From positions 96,001-160,000 of the IMG/VR virus record IMGVR_UViG_3300042317_000390: 64,000 nt of DNA; one strand, 5' to 3'. The first letter of the stretch is position 1; each line of letters opens with the position of its first letter. This DNA comes from a virus. Shown in pieces: positions 45,917 to 53,794 of this stretch. Under the pieces are notes generated by a model that saw only the letters and a program-made list of their open reading frames with translations, was not told the DNA's origin and searched no databases. The translations under genes were made by a program, and so were the position numbers.

Positions 45917-46480
45917 ATGAATATCTTCTATCTAAGCGAAGACCCTGTTCAAGCTGCTCAGTGGATGGTAGATCGTCACGTAGTTAAGATGATCTTAGAA
46001 TCTGCTCAGCTTCTATCTACAGCACATCGTTTGATGGATGGAAACGAAATCCTACTAGAAGTTGATATACTTCAGGAGGATGGTACACTTAAAACTAAGA
46101 AAAAGAAATGGTGGTTACTCGATGACTCTCGTGAAGAACTTATATACTCAGCTACGCACATTAATCATCCGTCTGCTATATGGACTCGCACAAGCGTCGA
46201 GAATTATAATTGGCTAGTCGATCATCTATTCGCCTTAATGGACGAATACACTTACCGTTACGAAAAGAAGCATAAGTGTTCTGGTGATCTTAGCTATATG
46301 CTACAATCACCTCCCAAGAATCTTAAAGATTGGGATATGACACCTATGCCTTCTTGTATGGCAGAAGAATATATTATTTCCGATAATCCAGTTGACAATT
46401 ATCGAAACTATTATATAAAGGGTAAGGCACATCTACATAAATGGAAAAAACGTGAGGTTCCCCCTTGGTTTCAGAGTTAA
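45917..46480 (+). CDS. pyrimidine-dimer DNA glycosylase-like (DenV/Pyr_excise family) protein
   Basis: MNIFYL..DP..AA....D.HVVKMILESAQLLSTAH; H.NHPS..W; YR.YY...K. Confidence 0.75.
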   Translation: MNIFYLSEDPVQAAQWMVDRHVVKMILESAQLLSTAHRLMDGNEILLEVDILQEDGTLKTKKKKWWLLDDSREELIYSATHINHPSAIWTRTSVENYNWLVDHLFALMDEYTYRYEKKHKCSGDLSYMLQSPPKNLKDWDMTPMPSCMAEEYIISDNPVDNYRNYYIKGKAHLHKWKKREVPPWFQS

Positions 46481-47046
46481 AAGAAACTATAGTTTATGAT
46501 GATATTATCCCCGTAGAGTTACAAGACGAATTTGAAAATACTCTGATGAATTATCCTAATTGGAGATTCATCAGAGATATGTCATATTCTAACAACGAAG
46601 CTTTTCCTTCGTATGGTTTTAATATGATGTTCAAACACCCTAGCTTTGGGGTTACGTCTCCACTGTATGAGAAAATATCAGTTCCGATAGCTAATGCTAT
46701 TCTGGAAAAGAAACTTATTGAATTTGAAGATATTCATTTCAATAGATCTTTTCTACAACTCCCGTTAGCTGATAAGTTTATCAAACCACATAATGGTATA
46801 CATTTAGATCTTCCACAAGATCATTATGCTTGCGTATATTATGTGAATGATTCTGACGGAGACACTATACTTTACGAGCAAACTAGGTATAATACGTTGC
46901 CTAGTTCTCAGAATGTTCCCACAGTAGAACATAAAAGAGTTACCCCTAAAAAGGGTAGAGTGGTTATATTTGATGGTGCTAGATACCATTGCTCTAGCCA
47001 ACCAAGAGATAGACACCGCTGTATTATCAATTTCGACTTTGTGTGA
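46465..47046 (+). CDS. 2OG-Fe(II) oxygenase
   Basis: HLD; YYVNDSDGDT; PKKGR.VIFDG..YH.SS.P; R.IINF. Confidence 0.85.
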   Translation: MVSELKETIVYDDIIPVELQDEFENTLMNYPNWRFIRDMSYSNNEAFPSYGFNMMFKHPSFGVTSPLYEKISVPIANAILEKKLIEFEDIHFNRSFLQLPLADKFIKPHNGIHLDLPQDHYACVYYVNDSDGDTILYEQTRYNTLPSSQNVPTVEHKRVTPKKGRVVIFDGARYHCSSQPRDRHRCIINFDFV

Positions 47047-47056
47047 GGTATATATA

Positions 47057-47431
47057 ATGGTAGATATGTTTAATTCCGTAAAAGAATTTCAGACCGCAGT
47101 TGGTCAGCACGTAGGCACTAAGCCAGAGTTTCCTGATGATAAAGAACGTATTCTACGTATGAGATTATTGGAAGAAGAGTTTGATGAATACTTACAAGGC
47201 GAACAAAATCACGATCTTGAAAATATTGCAAAAGAGTTGGCAGATATTATATACATCGTTTGTGGGACTGCTGCTTCTTATGGCATTCCGTTAAACGAAG
47301 TATTCGCTGAAGTCCATCGTTCTAATATGGATAAGTTAGTTGATGGTAAGCCAGTTCGCCGTGAAGATGGTAAGATTTTAAAACCAGAAGGTTGGACTGC
47401 TCCAGATATCAAAAGCATCTTAGGGATTTAA
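47057..47431 (+). CDS. MazG-like/PRA-PH nucleotide pyrophosphohydrolase
   Basis: ATG 47057 after GAGG; LR..L.EEE..E; KELAD..Y...G; EVH.SNM.K; REDGKILKP. Confidence 0.88.
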   Translation: MVDMFNSVKEFQTAVGQHVGTKPEFPDDKERILRMRLLEEEFDEYLQGEQNHDLENIAKELADIIYIVCGTAASYGIPLNEVFAEVHRSNMDKLVDGKPVRREDGKILKPEGWTAPDIKSILGI

Positions 47432-47433
47432 TA

Positions 47434-48798
47434 ATGGTCAATGTGATTGTTGCTAGAGACAGATTAGATTGTTCTAAACTAGAAGGTCAATTTGTAGACG
47501 AAAGTCATTTTGACGTTTTAGTAGAAGAAGATACTGACTGTTATATGCCACCGCTTTGTGATATGCTCACTAAAGCTAACTGTGGTATGAAAGATTGCGA
47601 ATCTTGCGAAGCAGGATCTGATGAGAAAAGAATCGCTTTCAAGTTTCGTAAGAACTACTTCACCAAGGAAGAGTGCGACGAAGCCTATATCGGTCTTCAT
47701 GGTGCAGCAACTCAGAGCTTTAATAGAGGTCTAGCTGCTGGTCCTCGTGGATTAGAAGGCGATGATTCTAGAGAATGGGTAACTCCTTACCAGACAGCGG
47801 TATTGAGTTATTTCATCGAAGGTGGATCTAGTCTTAACTCATTCATTGGCGAAGGTGAAGTAAACGTCAAGTCTATCAGAGAGCGTTATGCTACTCTTAA
47901 GCATAATGAAGAGACTAGAGGTAGCGTTTGGCTTCCAAGTGAGATTTCTAAACATTATCCAGATACCGAAAATTGGTTCGATAGATGGGCTGATGGTTTA
48001 GATAACTATTCTCTGGAAGAAAAGAGAACGGAAGCACTACGTGTTTCTAAGGAATGGATCTCAACTACTAATTATGCTAAGCCAGTATTCTCTGGTGTTG
48101 CCGGTTGGTATGATCGTTATCCTCGTATTCCTTATGGAAGACCTACTGCTTATACCGAGCATCACCCAGAACTATTCGAAAGGGCATATCCTTTCCTACA
48201 GTCTTTGAATAAAGGTTTCAAGGAACTATTACCTTGGCGTTGGTCTAATCAGAGATCAGTAGCTGATAAGATTGATTCAAAGTTCTTAGTTCCAGATACT
48301 GTATTCACTACGATTACAGTTAACAAGACCTTTAGAACAGCCGCTCATTACGATGCTGGTGATTACCAAGACGGTCTTAGTAATCTTCTTGTTCTAGGAA
48401 GTGGAGAGTATACTGGTGGTTATCTAGTATTTCCAGAGTATCGGATAGCAGTTAATGTTCGTCCCGGTGATCTACTTCTGGTTAATAATCACGAGGTTCT
48501 TCACGGCAATACACCTATTGTTCTTGACCATCCAAAGGCAGAACGTATTTCGGTTGTGTGTTACTTCCGAGAGAACATGCTAAAGCTTAAGTCCTATAAG
48601 TATGAAAATCTACGTAGGCAGTTTGTCGAGGAACGCAAGAATAATCAGAATCATCCTAGTTGGCATCGTTTATGGAATGGTATCTCTCCAGATATGTGGA
48701 AGTCAACTGAGTGGAGAGATTTCTTAGATAAGCATAATGCTGTTGATGAAGACGGCGTAGTTAACGTAGGCTTCAAAGGGTTTGAAAGCTTCGCTTAA
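47434..48798 (+). CDS. TET/JBP-family 5-methylpyrimidine dioxygenase
   Basis: FTTITVN..FRTAAHYDAGD (HxD), GGYLVFPEY..AV..RPGDLL, LHGNTP (distal His), ERISVVCY.RE (2OG-binding Arg); ATG 47434 preferred to upstream TTG. Confidence 0.85.
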   Translation: MVNVIVARDRLDCSKLEGQFVDESHFDVLVEEDTDCYMPPLCDMLTKANCGMKDCESCEAGSDEKRIAFKFRKNYFTKEECDEAYIGLHGAATQSFNRGLAAGPRGLEGDDSREWVTPYQTAVLSYFIEGGSSLNSFIGEGEVNVKSIRERYATLKHNEETRGSVWLPSEISKHYPDTENWFDRWADGLDNYSLEEKRTEALRVSKEWISTTNYAKPVFSGVAGWYDRYPRIPYGRPTAYTEHHPELFERAYPFLQSLNKGFKELLPWRWSNQRSVADKIDSKFLVPDTVFTTITVNKTFRTAAHYDAGDYQDGLSNLLVLGSGEYTGGYLVFPEYRIAVNVRPGDLLLVNNHEVLHGNTPIVLDHPKAERISVVCYFRENMLKLKSYKYENLRRQFVEERKNNQNHPSWHRLWNGISPDMWKSTEWRDFLDKHNAVDEDGVVNVGFKGFESFA

Positions 48799-49922
48799 TG
48801 AATACAATATTCGATACGTTATCAATAGACAGGAATGAGATTAAATGGGAAGATTATCTTTTCGATCTCACTCCTGTTGAAGAAGTAAATGGTATATTCT
48901 TCAAACGTGAAGATAAGTTTGCTCCTTTAGGTTATGGTGGTATTAACGGTTCAAAGTTACGCCAGTGTATTTGGTTAACTGAACAATACGTTAAGACTGC
49001 TAAGAATCCTATTGGTGTTATATCTGGTACGAGCGTAAAGTCACCACAGCTACCTATGGGATCTGCAGTAGCAGAACACTTCGGTCTTAAGAGTATTCAC
49101 GTTATCGGTTCAACCAAAGCTGATATAGCTCATAAGCATGAGAATGTTAATACAGCTACTTGGTTTGGTGCCGAGTTCTACATCAATAAGCATATAGCTT
49201 ATAATCCAGTATTACAGAGAAGAGTTCAAGATATTCTTTCTAAGGATGAAAGAGTTAAGGATTACTTTTATCTGGAATATGGTATCACAGTAGATCACAA
49301 AGTAAACTCACCAGAAAGAGTAGAGAGATTTCACTATGTTGGATCTGAGCAAATTAAAAACATACCAGAACATATTACCACTTTGGTTATACCAGCTGGT
49401 TCTTGTAATAGCTGCACTTCTATTCTTTACGGTCTTGCTAGATTTCGCCCTAAGAATCTCAGAGACGTATATCTTATTGGGATTGGACCAAACAAGATAG
49501 ACTTCATTGAAGAGCGTTTGGATATTATTGAGAACGTATCTGGTGTTTATACTAAGCCGTTTACTAGAATCTATCATGATACTCCTAACAAACAGCAACA
49601 GTATGAGTCGGGTCTAACTTCTTTCTTTACAGATAATACATCAGATTATAATTTTAATCTGCATCATTATGATCTTCATACAACTAATTATGTTGACTAC
49701 CAAGAAGAAATGCCTTATAGTTACGGTGGAATCGAATTTCATCCTACCTATGAAGGCAAGATGATGACTTACGTTAATGAGCGTATGCCTAATATTCTTG
49801 GTGAGAATACGATGGTATGGATTGTTGGTAGTAAGCCACGTAAAGAAAAGATGTATGATATGCTAAGAGGTAGATTGGGAGAGTTCCCAACTCATATTAA
49901 GGAATTTACCTATGCAGAGTGA
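48798..49922 (+). CDS. PLP-dependent enzyme, fold type II (ACC-deaminase-like), probable DNA aminoacyl decarboxylase
   Basis: LTPVE....FKRED......GINGSKLRQ (PLP lysine); SPQ; PAGS..S; HPTYEGK; WIVG. Confidence 0.8.
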   Translation: MNTIFDTLSIDRNEIKWEDYLFDLTPVEEVNGIFFKREDKFAPLGYGGINGSKLRQCIWLTEQYVKTAKNPIGVISGTSVKSPQLPMGSAVAEHFGLKSIHVIGSTKADIAHKHENVNTATWFGAEFYINKHIAYNPVLQRRVQDILSKDERVKDYFYLEYGITVDHKVNSPERVERFHYVGSEQIKNIPEHITTLVIPAGSCNSCTSILYGLARFRPKNLRDVYLIGIGPNKIDFIEERLDIIENVSGVYTKPFTRIYHDTPNKQQQYESGLTSFFTDNTSDYNFNLHHYDLHTTNYVDYQEEMPYSYGGIEFHPTYEGKMMTYVNERMPNILGENTMVWIVGSKPRKEKMYDMLRGRLGEFPTHIKEFTYAE

Positions 49923-51084
49923 GCAGCAGCTAGGTAGATGGTCTGAATTAACTAACCAACCAGAAATAAAAGATCTTCAATATGGTATGGACTTTCGTGA
50001 GCCACGGTATCGCCGTGAAGTCTTTCTAAGATTTTATGAGTTTCATCTTAAACATAGAAGCCATCCCGGTGGTGTATACTTTGCTTTTCCATGGTTAACG
50101 AAATACTATGGGATGGACATGGAAGATAAGTTGTGGATAGCGTTCATTAACGGATGCTCTCAGAATATTGTTACATCTTCTATGATCTACGAGAGATTCC
50201 CCAAGTTTAAAGATGTCAACGTTGATGAATTATCTGACTGGTGGGATACAGTTCATCCCAAATTTAAAGCAGGCAGTGGGTGGGATTCAGATAGAAAATA
50301 CTGTAAAGTTGGAAAAACAGGATTCCCTTCTTGCGTAAAATCGTATAAAGATAACGTAGACAAATACGGAACCCAAGAGAATATGTTTGGTTGTCTAACT
50401 ACTAATGACAACCAATTCTATAATTTTGGTAAGGTATGGGATCATGTAAGAAATAATTTTCTATCTTTTGGAAGATTATCAACTTTTTCATATCTTGAGT
50501 ATTTACGAATCCAAGGAATTAATATAGACTGTAATAGTCTTTTCTTGGACGATATCAGCGGATCAAAGTCTCATCGTAACGGTCTGTGTAAAGTATTAGG
50601 TCGTGATGATTTAGATTGGTGGGATGCAGAGGCTTCTCAGAATAAAGGTTTTGAGGGCTATAAAAAAGAAACCATTGAATGGTTAGTTAAAGAAGGTGAT
50701 ACTCTTCTGTTGGAAGCTAAAGAACGGATTAAGCATCCAGACGTTAGTTTCTTCACGATGGAATCAACCTTCTGTTGTTATAAGTCTTGGCATCGTCCTA
50801 ATCGTCGTTATCCAAACGTCTATATGGATATGATGTATAATAGAATCAAATACGCAGAGGAAGAGTGGGGAGATAAGTTTCAACATTTCTGGAAGATGCG
50901 TAGAGATTCTTTACCAGAACATCTTAGATTAGAAGACAATCCTGCTGATCCGGGTTTATGTAAAGAGAAGCAAAATCATTACCTAAATACAGGTCAAGTT
51001 ATTATGATGGATGAAGAGTGGGATTGCTTTAAGAACGACTTTAACGATAACACTAAGAATACCCTTGAAAGGTTCTTTGGATGA
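49912..51084 (+). CDS. amino acid:DNA transferase (aGPT-Pplase2-like, HhH-glycosylase fold)
   Basis: FGRLSTFSYLEYL; SHRNGL; F.MES.FC.YK; RRYPNVY.D; flanked by PLP enzyme and P-loop kinase as in ViI/M6-type loci. Confidence 0.75.
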   Translation: MQSEQQLGRWSELTNQPEIKDLQYGMDFREPRYRREVFLRFYEFHLKHRSHPGGVYFAFPWLTKYYGMDMEDKLWIAFINGCSQNIVTSSMIYERFPKFKDVNVDELSDWWDTVHPKFKAGSGWDSDRKYCKVGKTGFPSCVKSYKDNVDKYGTQENMFGCLTTNDNQFYNFGKVWDHVRNNFLSFGRLSTFSYLEYLRIQGINIDCNSLFLDDISGSKSHRNGLCKVLGRDDLDWWDAEASQNKGFEGYKKETIEWLVKEGDTLLLEAKERIKHPDVSFFTMESTFCCYKSWHRPNRRYPNVYMDMMYNRIKYAEEEWGDKFQHFWKMRRDSLPEHLRLEDNPADPGLCKEKQNHYLNTGQVIMMDEEWDCFKNDFNDNTKNTLERFFG

Positions 51085-51617
51085 AAATCTTTGCTATCGG
51101 TGGTGAGCCAGGTTCTGGTAAGTCCACTCTAATGAAAGAAATACTTAGAAAGAATGTTTTTTCTTCTATGTTTGATCAAGTAAAGTTAGTTCCATATCAT
51201 CAATCAGGATTTGTATATATTCTTGGCAAGTATGAAGAAGGTCAAGTCTTCTCTGGCACAGATCGTATGTCTATGGCGGTTCAACCAGAGGCAGTGAAGT
51301 TTCTAGCCTCCCTTCCTGACAATTCTATTGTCCTTTTTGAAGGTGACCGGCTCTTCACTGCCTCTTTTCTAGAGCATTGCGTAGAGAAGTATGATACAGA
51401 AATCATCTATCTAGAGACTGATAAAACTATCAGAGAAGAAAGATATAAGGAAAGAGGCAGCGATCAGAACGAAACTTGGTTACAGGGTCGTCAAACTAAG
51501 ATTGCTAATATCCTTTCCAATATGGTTTTGATGTTTAATACGGTTAAGTTTAAAAACAATAACAAAGAAGATCAGAAAGTTATTGTTGATCATATTATGA
51601 AGACTTTGGAGGCATAA
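51081..51617 (+). CDS. P-loop kinase, probable 5-hydroxymethylpyrimidine DNA kinase (5-HMUDK-like)
   Basis: IGGEPGSGKST; LGKY.....F.GTDRMSM; FEGDRL; R..ERGS.Q...W..GR.TK. Confidence 0.8.
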   Translation: MKIFAIGGEPGSGKSTLMKEILRKNVFSSMFDQVKLVPYHQSGFVYILGKYEEGQVFSGTDRMSMAVQPEAVKFLASLPDNSIVLFEGDRLFTASFLEHCVEKYDTEIIYLETDKTIREERYKERGSDQNETWLQGRQTKIANILSNMVLMFNTVKFKNNNKEDQKVIVDHIMKTLEA

Positions 51618-52066
51618 TGACACTAAAACCTAATATAGATACCATGTATCCATTCGCATCATCACCAACAGGTTCTGTTAGCTCTGCTGAAGAGTATAAG
51701 TTTGAAAACGGTCACACTTGGTCAGTAGGTGGAGAAGAGAGAATTAGAGTTAACGAAAGCGGCGCTCATTTTACTGCATCAACATGGCCACCTAAATATA
51801 AATATAAGGAAGACCAGATTATTGCTGACTTCCATGCCTATATAGATAAGACGTATGGGCAGCACTATATGACTGAAGAGCAGAATATAGAATGTTTCGA
51901 TGTTTGGTTGGCTCTTGGTGATTCTTTACCAACTTTCCGAAACACAGCTATTAAGTATCTTTGGCGTTACGGCAAGAAGAAGGGCAGTAATAAGGATGAC
52001 CTTATGAAGGTTCTTCATTATACGTTAATGATGCTTTATAACGATCATTATAAAGGTAATAAATGA
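51617..52066 (+). CDS. DUF3310/SaV-like protein (putative nucleotide kinase)
   Basis: YI..TYGQHY; F...AIKYLWRYGKK.G....DL.K.LHY. Confidence 0.75.
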   Translation: MTLKPNIDTMYPFASSPTGSVSSAEEYKFENGHTWSVGGEERIRVNESGAHFTASTWPPKYKYKEDQIIADFHAYIDKTYGQHYMTEEQNIECFDVWLALGDSLPTFRNTAIKYLWRYGKKKGSNKDDLMKVLHYTLMMLYNDHYKGNK

Positions 52067-52262: not shown

Positions 52263-53120
52263 ATGGAAATTAAGATCCCAGTTGAAAAGTTGAGAGATAG
52301 GAAGCTATTCGTAGCCACTCCTATGTATGGTGGTGTTTGTGCAGGTATGTTTGCTAAGTCATGCGCTGACCTATCTGCTATTTGTACGCAGTATGGTATT
52401 CCACTTCAGTTTTATTATCTATTCAACGAGTCTCTAATTACACGTGCACGTAATTATTGCTGCGATGAATTTATGCGTTCCGACGCTCAGCATATGATGT
52501 TTATCGATTCTGATATCGGCTTCAATCCTCAAGACGTTATTGCTCTTATGGCACTACAGGCTAATGAGGAAGAGAAGTATGATATCATTGGTGGTCCATA
52601 TCCTAAGAAGTGTATCTCTTGGGAGAAGATTAAGCACGCAGTAGATAAGGGCGTTGCCGATGAAGATCCAAACGTTCTTGAGAAGTTCGTTGGTGATTAC
52701 GTGTTTAATCCGAAGGGAGATCAGACTAGTATTCCTCTAAGTGATCCGGTAGAAGTATTAGAAATCGGAACGGGCTTTATGATGGTCACCAAGAAGGCCA
52801 TGCAGAAGTTCTACGATTCCTATAAGGATCAGTATTCTTATAAGCCAGATCATGTTCGTACAGAGCATTTTGACGGCACTCGTGAAATTCTAATGTTCTT
52901 CCAGGCAGAAGTAGATCCAAAGTCAAAGCGTTATCTTTCTGAGGATTATTGGTTCTGTCAGAAGGCTCAAGAGATCGGACTACGTACGTGGTTCTGTCCT
53001 TGGATGAAGTTACAGCATGTTGGAACCTATATTTTTGGCGGTTCTCTTGCTGACTTGGCTTCAATCGGTGCTTCGGCAACGGCTGATCCGGGTAAACTTG
53101 GTGGTAAAAAGAAGAAGTGA
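52263..53120 (+). CDS. GT-A-fold glycosyltransferase-like protein
   Basis: FVATPMYGG; ESLITRARN; FIDSD (DxD); GTGFMM; YLSEDY.FC; H.G. Confidence 0.75.
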   Translation: MEIKIPVEKLRDRKLFVATPMYGGVCAGMFAKSCADLSAICTQYGIPLQFYYLFNESLITRARNYCCDEFMRSDAQHMMFIDSDIGFNPQDVIALMALQANEEEKYDIIGGPYPKKCISWEKIKHAVDKGVADEDPNVLEKFVGDYVFNPKGDQTSIPLSDPVEVLEIGTGFMMVTKKAMQKFYDSYKDQYSYKPDHVRTEHFDGTREILMFFQAEVDPKSKRYLSEDYWFCQKAQEIGLRTWFCPWMKLQHVGTYIFGGSLADLASIGASATADPGKLGGKKKK

Positions 53121-53137
53121 AATAACGGAGCTAAATT

Positions 53138-53794
53138 ATGAAGATTGATGTAGATACGGTAAATGTTCTGAAGAATTTCTCGAAGATTAATTCTTCAATC
53201 GTAGTCCAAGAGGGTAATGTTCTAAAGACCATTTCTCCTACTAAGACTATCATGGCGAAGGCAAACGTCAAGACTGACTTTCCAAAGCGTTTTGCTATCT
53301 ATGAGCTAGATCGGTTTCTTGCTACTCTCAGCACGTTCACTGATCCAGAACTGGATTTCAAGAATCGTCATGTTGACGTTAAGGATAATCGTCGTGTTAC
53401 GAATTATCTATATGCCGATGAAAGCACCGTCATTAAGGCACCAGAGAACGAAATCAGCCTTCCAACGGTTGACGTTAAGTTTACTCTGATAAACGACGAC
53501 CTGAAGACTATCGAAAAGTCTAGCGGTATTCTCAATCTACCAGATATTGTTATTACTGGTGATGGTAAGAATATCTATATCCAGGCAGCTGATACAAAGG
53601 TTTCTTCTGGTACAACTGACTCTATTGAGATCGGTCTAACAGACAAGACCTTCCGTGCTATCTTCAAGGCTGAGAATATCAATAAGATTATTCCCGGCGA
53701 TTATGATGTTAGTATTTCATCTAAGGGTATCTCACGGTTCGTGGGAAATGGTGTAGAGTATTATATCGCAGTTGAAGCCACTTCAACTTTCTAA
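53138..53794 (+). CDS. gp45: sliding clamp
   Basis: T..VLKNFS.IN.SI....GN...TIS..K...A.A; F.IY.L..FL; Y.IA.E; precedes gp44. Confidence 0.93.
   Translation: MKIDVDTVNVLKNFSKINSSIVVQEGNVLKTISPTKTIMAKANVKTDFPKRFAIYELDRFLATLSTFTDPELDFKNRHVDVKDNRRVTNYLYADESTVIKAPENEISLPTVDVKFTLINDDLKTIEKSSGILNLPDIVITGDGKNIYIQAADTKVSSGTTDSIEIGLTDKTFRAIFKAENINKIIPGDYDVSISSKGISRFVGNGVEYYIAVEATSTF

Follow-up and report, generated by a model that had tools for sequence, protein, structure and literature searches.

A four-gene TET/JBP-initiated cassette for probable post-replicative thymidine hypermodification in an uncultured T4-like phage

Can a phage arrive at a hypermodified thymine without the ThyA-like dUMP hydroxymethylase that supplies 5-hydroxymethyldeoxyuridine (5-hmdU) in Salmonella phage ViI and Pseudomonas phage M6? 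The question is raised by four overlapping genes of an uncultured T4-like phage, which we studied in a window of 64,000 nucleotides (bases 96001–160000 of the 168,653-bp IMG/VR virus record IMGVR_UViG_3300042317_000390, rated complete, 100%, by CheckV). The genes encode a TET/JBP-family dioxygenase, a pyridoxal phosphate (PLP) enzyme, an amino-acid:DNA transferase (AADT) and a P-loop kinase, and we consider it probable that they constitute a post-replicative thymidine hypermodification set that converts thymine to an amino-alkyl base.

The four open reading frames (ORFs) occupy positions 47434–48798, 48798–49922, 49912–51084 and 51081–51617 of the window, all on the plus strand. They are joined by a TAATG (1-nt overlap), an 11-nt overlap and an ATGA (4-nt overlap), and these coordinates and junctions were re-found exactly as given in the original prediction, which had been made from the letters of the window.

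The first gene (47434–48798, plus strand) encodes a 454-residue TET/JBP-family (5mYOX) Fe(II)/2-oxoglutarate (2OG) dioxygenase, predicted to hydroxylate thymine in DNA, and is the single Tet_JBP gene of the genome. Its product contained the catalytic motifs that had been read from its translation, HYDAGD (residue 305), HGNT (357) and RISVVCY (371), and was matched by the Tet_JBP profile (PF12851) with E 6e-25 and 87.7 bits, where the cut-off is 34.9; in the scan of the whole genome the score was 90.3 bits. The HxD...H iron triad (H305, D307 and H357) and the 2OG-binding R371 were invariant across 19 homologues. When the sequences in the PDB were searched with phmmer, the TET had only marginal matches (E about 0.1) and neither the PLP enzyme nor the kinase had a useful one, so that fold searches were needed. 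For the AlphaFold2 model of the TET (predicted local distance difference test, pLDDT, of 74), the top Foldseek matches in the PDB were CcTet, NgTET1, TET2 and CMD1 (E 2e-8 to 2e-6), such that the best solved structural matches were, without exception, TET-family DNA dioxygenases.

The third gene (49912–51084, plus strand) encodes the AADT (390 residues; formerly aGPT-Pplase2). The aGPT-Pplase2-like motifs noted earlier were substantiated by a match to the AADT profile (ADDT, PF18724; E 5e-22; 79.1 bits, cut-off 26.2), the same model that is matched by ViI gp247 and M6 gp51. These two enzymes transfer Ser and Gly, and AADTs act on phosphorylated 5-hydroxymethyluracil (5-hmU) in DNA (PMC8989533). 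The window enzyme is 27% identical to gp247 and 38% identical to the gene-3 product of Mycobacterium phage Coopervirus, its closest match from a cultured phage. In the AADT tree it groups with TET-linked AADTs and the Coopervirus enzyme, apart from gp247 and gp51.

The second gene (48798–49922, plus strand) encodes a 374-residue fold-type II PLP enzyme that we predict, from its likeness to ViI gp226 and from its model, to be a decarboxylase of the amino-acid:thymine adduct. Gp226 has been shown experimentally to be the O-seryl-thymine (O-SerT) decarboxylase (PMC8989533). Their alignment over 378 columns shows 47% identity (E 3e-117), and Lys53 of the window protein, invariant in nine homologues, aligns with Lys92 of gp226. 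The Pfam PALP profile stayed below cut-off for the window protein (E 0.078), as it also did for gp226 itself. The fold-II PLP lysine of the original prediction was thus supported by conservation and by the AlphaFold model (pLDDT 85), which matched 4d9e, 1j0a and TrpB in Foldseek (E 1e-9 to 1e-7) and resembles the folds of D-Cys desulfhydrase, 1-aminocyclopropane-1-carboxylate (ACC) deaminase and TrpB. Of these, 1j0a is the template reported for gp226 (PMC8989533).

Serine is favored as the transferred amino acid on three grounds: a free alpha-amine is required for the PLP step, no isomerase is encoded in the genome, and the PLP enzyme closely resembles the decarboxylase of O-SerT. The lack of a radical-SAM isomerase had been noted for the window, and no radical-SAM enzyme was found in the whole genome either. 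A different donor of the side-chain nucleophile (Thr, Cys, Lys or ornithine) in the same pathway, which would give a different amino-alkyl thymine and possibly an undescribed base, is in our view unlikely, yet deserves serious attention. The low identity of the AADT to gp247 and its placement in a separate clade speak for another donor, as does the variation of AADT specificity among Ser, Gly and putrescine (PMC8989533). However, the PLP enzyme is nearly half identical to a decarboxylase of O-SerT, and serine is the only side-chain-linked precedent.

The model of the PLP enzyme also bears on its reaction. Its structural neighbors are desulfhydrases, deaminases and beta-replacement enzymes, which speaks for a protein that, instead of decarboxylating the adduct, subjects it to a reaction typical of fold II (beta-elimination or beta-replacement) or supplies a modified amino acid to the AADT. 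We consider this improbable, as gp226, a proven decarboxylase, has the same fold relatives, including the template 1j0a, and shares with the window enzyme the conserved Lys and 47% overall identity.

The base that is modified can be judged from the gene content of the complete genome. No match to the ThyA family (PF00303, which would include dUMP and dCMP hydroxymethylases) and no C5 cytosine methyltransferase (C5-MTase) was found in it, such that the absence of a dUMP hydroxymethylase and of a C5-MTase, first stated for 64 kb, holds for the whole record, and the ThyA-like source of 5-hmdU that characterizes ViI/M6-type pathways is missing. A ThyX thymidylate synthase is encoded. Because ThyX is present and the ThyA family is not, ordinary T would be made and incorporated, and because both the ThyA family and a C5-MTase are lacking, the one visible way to a hydroxymethyl pyrimidine is the oxidation of T in DNA. 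Judged from this genomic context, the substrate is almost certainly thymine and not 5-methylcytosine (5mC). The original prediction had allowed either T or 5mC as the origin of the hydroxymethyl handle; its post-replicative oxidation followed by kinase, AADT and PLP logic stands, whereas its new base on cytosine does not fit a genome with ThyX and without a C5-MTase.

It is accordingly very improbable that the dioxygenase oxidizes 5mC and that the cassette makes a hypermodified cytosine. Phage TETs of clades A and B do act on 5mC, and a kinase role on 5-hydroxymethylcytosine has been proposed for some contigs (PMC8256090), but this 100%-complete genome has neither a C5-MTase nor a ThyA-family dCMP-modifying enzyme. 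In addition, the relatives of the cluster likewise lack a C5-MTase, and phage 5mYOXs without a neighboring C5-MTase have been assigned in publications as T-dioxygenases (PMC13229309 and a preprint).

The fourth gene (51081–51617, plus strand) encodes a 178-residue P-loop kinase of the Ploopntkinase3 clade, predicted to act on 5-hmU in DNA. That it is a P-loop kinase was confirmed by its match to PF18751 (E 1e-12; 48.2 bits, cut-off 27) and by a Walker A motif at residues 8–15. Its earlier name, 5-HMUDK, had to be dropped, since the protein matches PF18751 only and lies outside the characterized families PF18748 (HMUDK_HMUD1; M6 gp54 and ViI gp67) and PF18747 (HMUD2; ViI gp243). Its similarity to M6 gp54 (31% over 97 residues, E 3e-5) and to ViI gp67 (E 0.003) is weak and N-terminal, and its closest match from a cultured phage is in Caulobacter phage Cr30 (37%). 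The kinase gene overlaps the AADT gene by 4 nt, and the two are linked in all 23 loci of the AADT-based search described below. By analogy with the assayed families, the kinase probably acts like a 5-HMUDK.

It is scarcely credible that the substrates are free nucleotides or RNA, or that the genes are unrelated neighbors in a replication region. In favor of this reading stand the name of PF18751, that of a nucleotide kinase, and the active nucleotide metabolism evident from MazG and ThyX. Against it, the TET, AADT and PF18751 trio is linked in unrelated lineages (T4-like phages, Mycobacterium Coopervirus and others), DNA polymers are the substrates of the AADT and gp226 families (PMC8989533), and the four genes overlap.

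Together, these data suggest the following route for the thymidine hypermodification that we favor. The phage ThyX would make dTMP, and replication would proceed with ordinary T. The TET/JBP enzyme would then hydroxylate some thymines in the DNA polymer to 5-hmU, and the PF18751 kinase, solely by analogy with the 5-HMUDKs, would phosphorylate the new hydroxyl. The AADT would swap this phosphate for an amino acid attached via its side chain, most likely serine, from which the gp226-like PLP enzyme would strip the carboxylate to leave an amino-alkyl side chain. The likeliest end product would be 5-(2-aminoethoxy)methyl-dU (5-NeOmdU) or a base like it, which is the ViI base reached by a different entry route, and it would presumably protect the DNA from host nucleases.

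Several observations weigh against this reading. The phage is uncultured, and its pathway is a prediction from genes. The position of the AADT in the tree, apart from the serine transferase gp247, means that the proposal of serine would depend entirely on the PLP argument. Close relatives of the AADT (79% identity, contig L053) occur without a PLP gene, so the adduct may differ between loci. The kinase belongs to none of the characterized 5-HMUDK families, and in the literature we found no assayed member of PF18751. Lastly, some 5mYOXs of clade C1 that lack ParB were inactive in E. coli (PMC13229309). Other phage T-dioxygenases need a ParB activator on double-stranded DNA (O'Toole et al. 2026, PMC13229309), and the window TET, having no co-located ParB gene, falls outside this ParB-dependent subclass. 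When the genome was searched for a ParB-like activator, PF02195 had no match, and neither did, by tblastn, the ParB-like ORF that sister cassettes carry.

Related loci indicated that the gene set is recurrent. The order TET, PLP, AADT, PF18751 kinase was found in six further viral contigs (L035/L056, L066, L067, L072, L070 and L071), two of which (L070 and L071) have a methyltransferase-like gene added to the four. An AADT-based search recovered 23 loci, each with a TET and a PF18751 kinase (23/23). In two other loci, L073 (6206–10670) and L074, the same PLP and AADT families occur with HMUDK1 (PF18748), HMUDK_hel (PF18723) and a ThyA-like gene, from which it appears that the back end of the pathway takes 5-hmU from either source. 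Judged by these gene associations, the kinase type may follow the source of 5-hmU, with PF18751 accompanying TET and HMUDK1 plus HMUDK_hel accompanying the ThyA-like gene. No match to the four genes was obtained by megablast against 50,697 phage records, and no cultured phage among these records carries a TET together with the PLP gene.

Elsewhere in the same AADT clade, a methyltransferase-like family or a second AADT paralogue is present instead of the PLP gene. In L068, the place of the PLP gene is taken by a gene of 346 residues, which was considered as a divergent PLP enzyme and rejected, as it is a second AADT-family paralogue. A family of 246–261-residue proteins is encoded beside members of the AADT clade, whether the PLP gene is present or not (L053:7217–8002, L058:1234–1974, L057:7250–8023 and L070:288–1061); it shows a weak RrnaAD (S-adenosylmethionine-dependent methyltransferase) hint only and is a candidate tailoring enzyme.

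The TET itself is more widely conserved than the genes that follow it. In 44 T4-like viral contigs (L004–L047), a TET with 51–71% identity is encoded in the same syntenic position. Across about 44 contigs, no fewer than seven different cassettes occur in the slot that separates this conserved TET from the DUF3310/gp45 backbone. One cassette (e.g., L011:9353–14349) consists of a GATase, an unknown gene, a GNAT, a weakly ParB-like gene, an AADT and a kinase. Others are shorter GATase versions, an AADT with an inositol-1-phosphate synthase and a kinase, a kinase alone, a TET-associated glycosyltransferase (TAGT) alone, and the PLP, AADT and kinase genes as in the window (further example slots are L010:1375–4767 and L004:6547–7335). 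The weakly ParB-like gene of the GATase-type cassettes is an ORF of 446–494 residues (L011:11503–12843 and L020:11581–13065) with a weak ParB-like PHROG match (E 3e-6) and no match in Pfam. It may correspond to the ParB-type activator of O'Toole et al., and it is absent from the genome of the window.

Two cultured relatives have other cassettes together with an orthologous TET. In Caulobacter phage Cr30 (L003, KF301602 51812–60681), a TET occurs with a dGTP_diPhyd_N protein, an AADT (E 1e-52), a TAGT-like gene, an inositol-1-phosphate synthase and a PF18751 kinase, and in Stenotrophomonas phage DLP_6 (L002, KU682439 24235–28525), a TAGT and an NTP-transferase/APH fusion accompany the TET. Both TETs are annotated as "SNF2 DNA repair protein". 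We know of no report of DNA modification in Cr30 or DLP_6.

How the modification might keep pace with replication is suggested by the C-terminal ends of the enzymes. The TET ends in GFESFA (48778–48795, plus strand) and the AADT in TLERFFG (51061–51081, plus strand), endings that resemble the TLESFFT of the phage DNA polymerase and are putative clamp-binding peptides. A loose version of the motif occurs in three of the 244 ORFs of the genome (polymerase, AADT and TET), and the strict version, [ST]LE.FF.?$, in only the DNA polymerase and the AADT. The polymerases of T4 and RB69 bind the gp45 sliding clamp through such a C-terminal peptide. The gp45 gene of this phage, the putative docking partner, lies outside the cassette at 53138–53794 on the plus strand (PF09116, gp45-slide_C, E 6e-14) and is syntenic in all related loci. 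Among these loci, most of the 62 TET ORFs end in [ST]LExFF, and the same type of tail is present on all TAGT and many AADT and GNAT ORFs and mostly missing on PLP, kinase and GATase ORFs. In two sister phages the polymerases end in NLEDFF and TLEDFF and the TETs in SLESFF.

The tail shared by TET, AADT and polymerase suggests putative tethering to the sliding clamp, and, as both enzymes bear it, they would probably act at or directly behind the replication fork. Clamp binding by an enzyme that modifies DNA has a precedent among T4-type phages, as T4 alpha-glucosyltransferase binds gp45 (Sommer et al. 2004; PMC13216743); here, by contrast, the contact would be made through a polymerase-like peptide at the C-terminus of TET, AADT, TAGT and GNAT. 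We tentatively raise the possibility, for which the odds appear to us somewhat less than even, that TET and AADT (and TAGT and GNAT in the sisters) are recruited to gp45 by a peptide copied from the polymerase, which would couple them to the fork, with the clamp tether replacing the ParB activator. When gp45 was modeled in complex with the C-terminal 45 residues of the AADT, the prediction scored 0.38 against 0.00 for the best control, with a contact agreement between runs of at least 72% and a partner pLDDT of at least 51. This result is weak and is not counted as evidence: the mark applied is attained for 58 of the 80 solved complexes and for 2 of the 110 mismatches, but passes at or below 0.60 are more often wrong than right. 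The pass may also reflect likeness only, because a complex of the RB69 clamp with the polymerase peptide has already been solved.

The original prediction had implied that a pathway of this kind was novel, and in this it was mistaken, as the concept is already published (PMC8989533, PMC13229309). Lee et al. 2021 (NAR, PMC8989533, Fig. 2 sequences 22–25) described metavirome contigs without a dUMP hydroxymethylase in which TET_JBP lies beside thymidine hypermodification genes. O'Toole et al. 2026 (PNAS, PMC13229309) proved the activity of phage T-dioxygenases and their linkage to PF18751 kinases, AADTs (PF18724) and GATases; a PLP decarboxylase is not listed among their co-occurring domains. 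The window locus resembles the metavirome clusters in having TET_JBP in place of the dUMP hydroxymethylase, no C5-MTase, and an adjacent AADT and PF18751 kinase, and the published GATase/GNAT versions are carried by its sister phages. It differs in that its genome is T4-like and lacks ParB, and in that a ViI-type PLP decarboxylase is inserted. The locus is a further permutation of the published pathway, ParB-less and with a ViI-type decarboxylase, and not new chemistry. What it adds is the recurrent four-gene order, the swap-in slot, a kinase outside the 5-HMUDK families, and the polymerase-like tails of TET and AADT.

The likeness to ViI lies in the back end. The 5-NeOmdU pathway of ViI uses a dUMP hydroxymethylase, the 5-HMUDKs gp67 and gp243, the Ser:DNA transferase gp247 and the PLP decarboxylase gp226, and it shares with the window cassette the PLP enzyme with its conserved Lys, the Pfam family of the AADT, the lack of a radical-SAM isomerase and the kinase-transferase-decarboxylase logic. 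Whereas ViI makes its 5-hmU by a ThyA-like enzyme at nucleotide level, the window cassette would do so by oxidizing T in DNA; its kinase and AADT are also divergent from those of ViI, as given above, and its genes are clustered, unlike the scattered genes of ViI. Genes 1–4 of Mycobacterium phage Coopervirus (cluster B), which encode ParB, a hydroxylase (TET), an AADT and an "adenylate kinase", share with the window the order TET, AADT, kinase and a PF18751 kinase of about 30% identity. Coopervirus, in contrast, has ParB and no PLP gene, and its TET is much shorter (324 residues) and only 29% identical over the catalytic core.

A further parallel is found in trypanosomes, where JBP1/2 convert T to 5-hmU after replication and the base-J glucosyltransferase then decorates the hydroxyl. 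In the window cassette, the decoration would instead proceed through phosphate activation and amino-acid transfer, and the sister phages that have TAGT only (L004 and L013) are nearer to the base-J scheme.

The four genes are surrounded by a T4-like replication and recombination block, in the order gp55, gp47, gp46, lysozyme, peptide deformylase, MazG, the four genes, a DUF3310 gene, a zinc ribbon, a 285-residue gene, gp45, gp44/62 and RegA. A scan for sigma-70 promoters gave 44 where 42 were expected by chance, and the single strong terminator is downstream of gp45. Directly upstream of the TET lie a MazG/PRA-PH pyrophosphohydrolase (46970–47431), present in most sister contigs, and a second 2OG-Fe(II) oxygenase (46465–47046; PF13640 below cut-off, C-terminus NFDFV), present in a few of them only. 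Downstream, a fifth gene, that of DUF3310 (51617–52066), overlaps the kinase stop by 1 nt through another TAATG; several PHROGs contain fusions of DUF3310 with "nucleotide kinase" proteins, and DUF3310 is retained in the backbone even of contigs without a kinase. The 285-residue gene (52263–53120; phrog_1574, of unknown function, with a faint Anp1 glycosyltransferase hint only) is 47–92% conserved across all related loci (66% in DLP_6 and 57% in Cr30) and always directly precedes gp45. Outside the window, ARAGORN called a permuted tmRNA (C1:67840–68221) and seven tRNAs in the genome.

So far the end product has been determined for no TET-initiated thymidine hypermodification pathway. In the cassette described here, three of the four steps have a close or family-level experimental precedent, and it is the chemically simplest TET-initiated test case. 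If our reading is correct, the ViI base or a near relative of it would be reachable without altering the nucleotide pool. If the tether exists, it could explain the inactivity of lone ParB-less clade C1 enzymes in E. coli. The swap-in slot after a conserved TET offers a handle on how phages shuffle their DNA chemistry, and the polymerase-like tails offer one on how post-replicative modification keeps up with replication.

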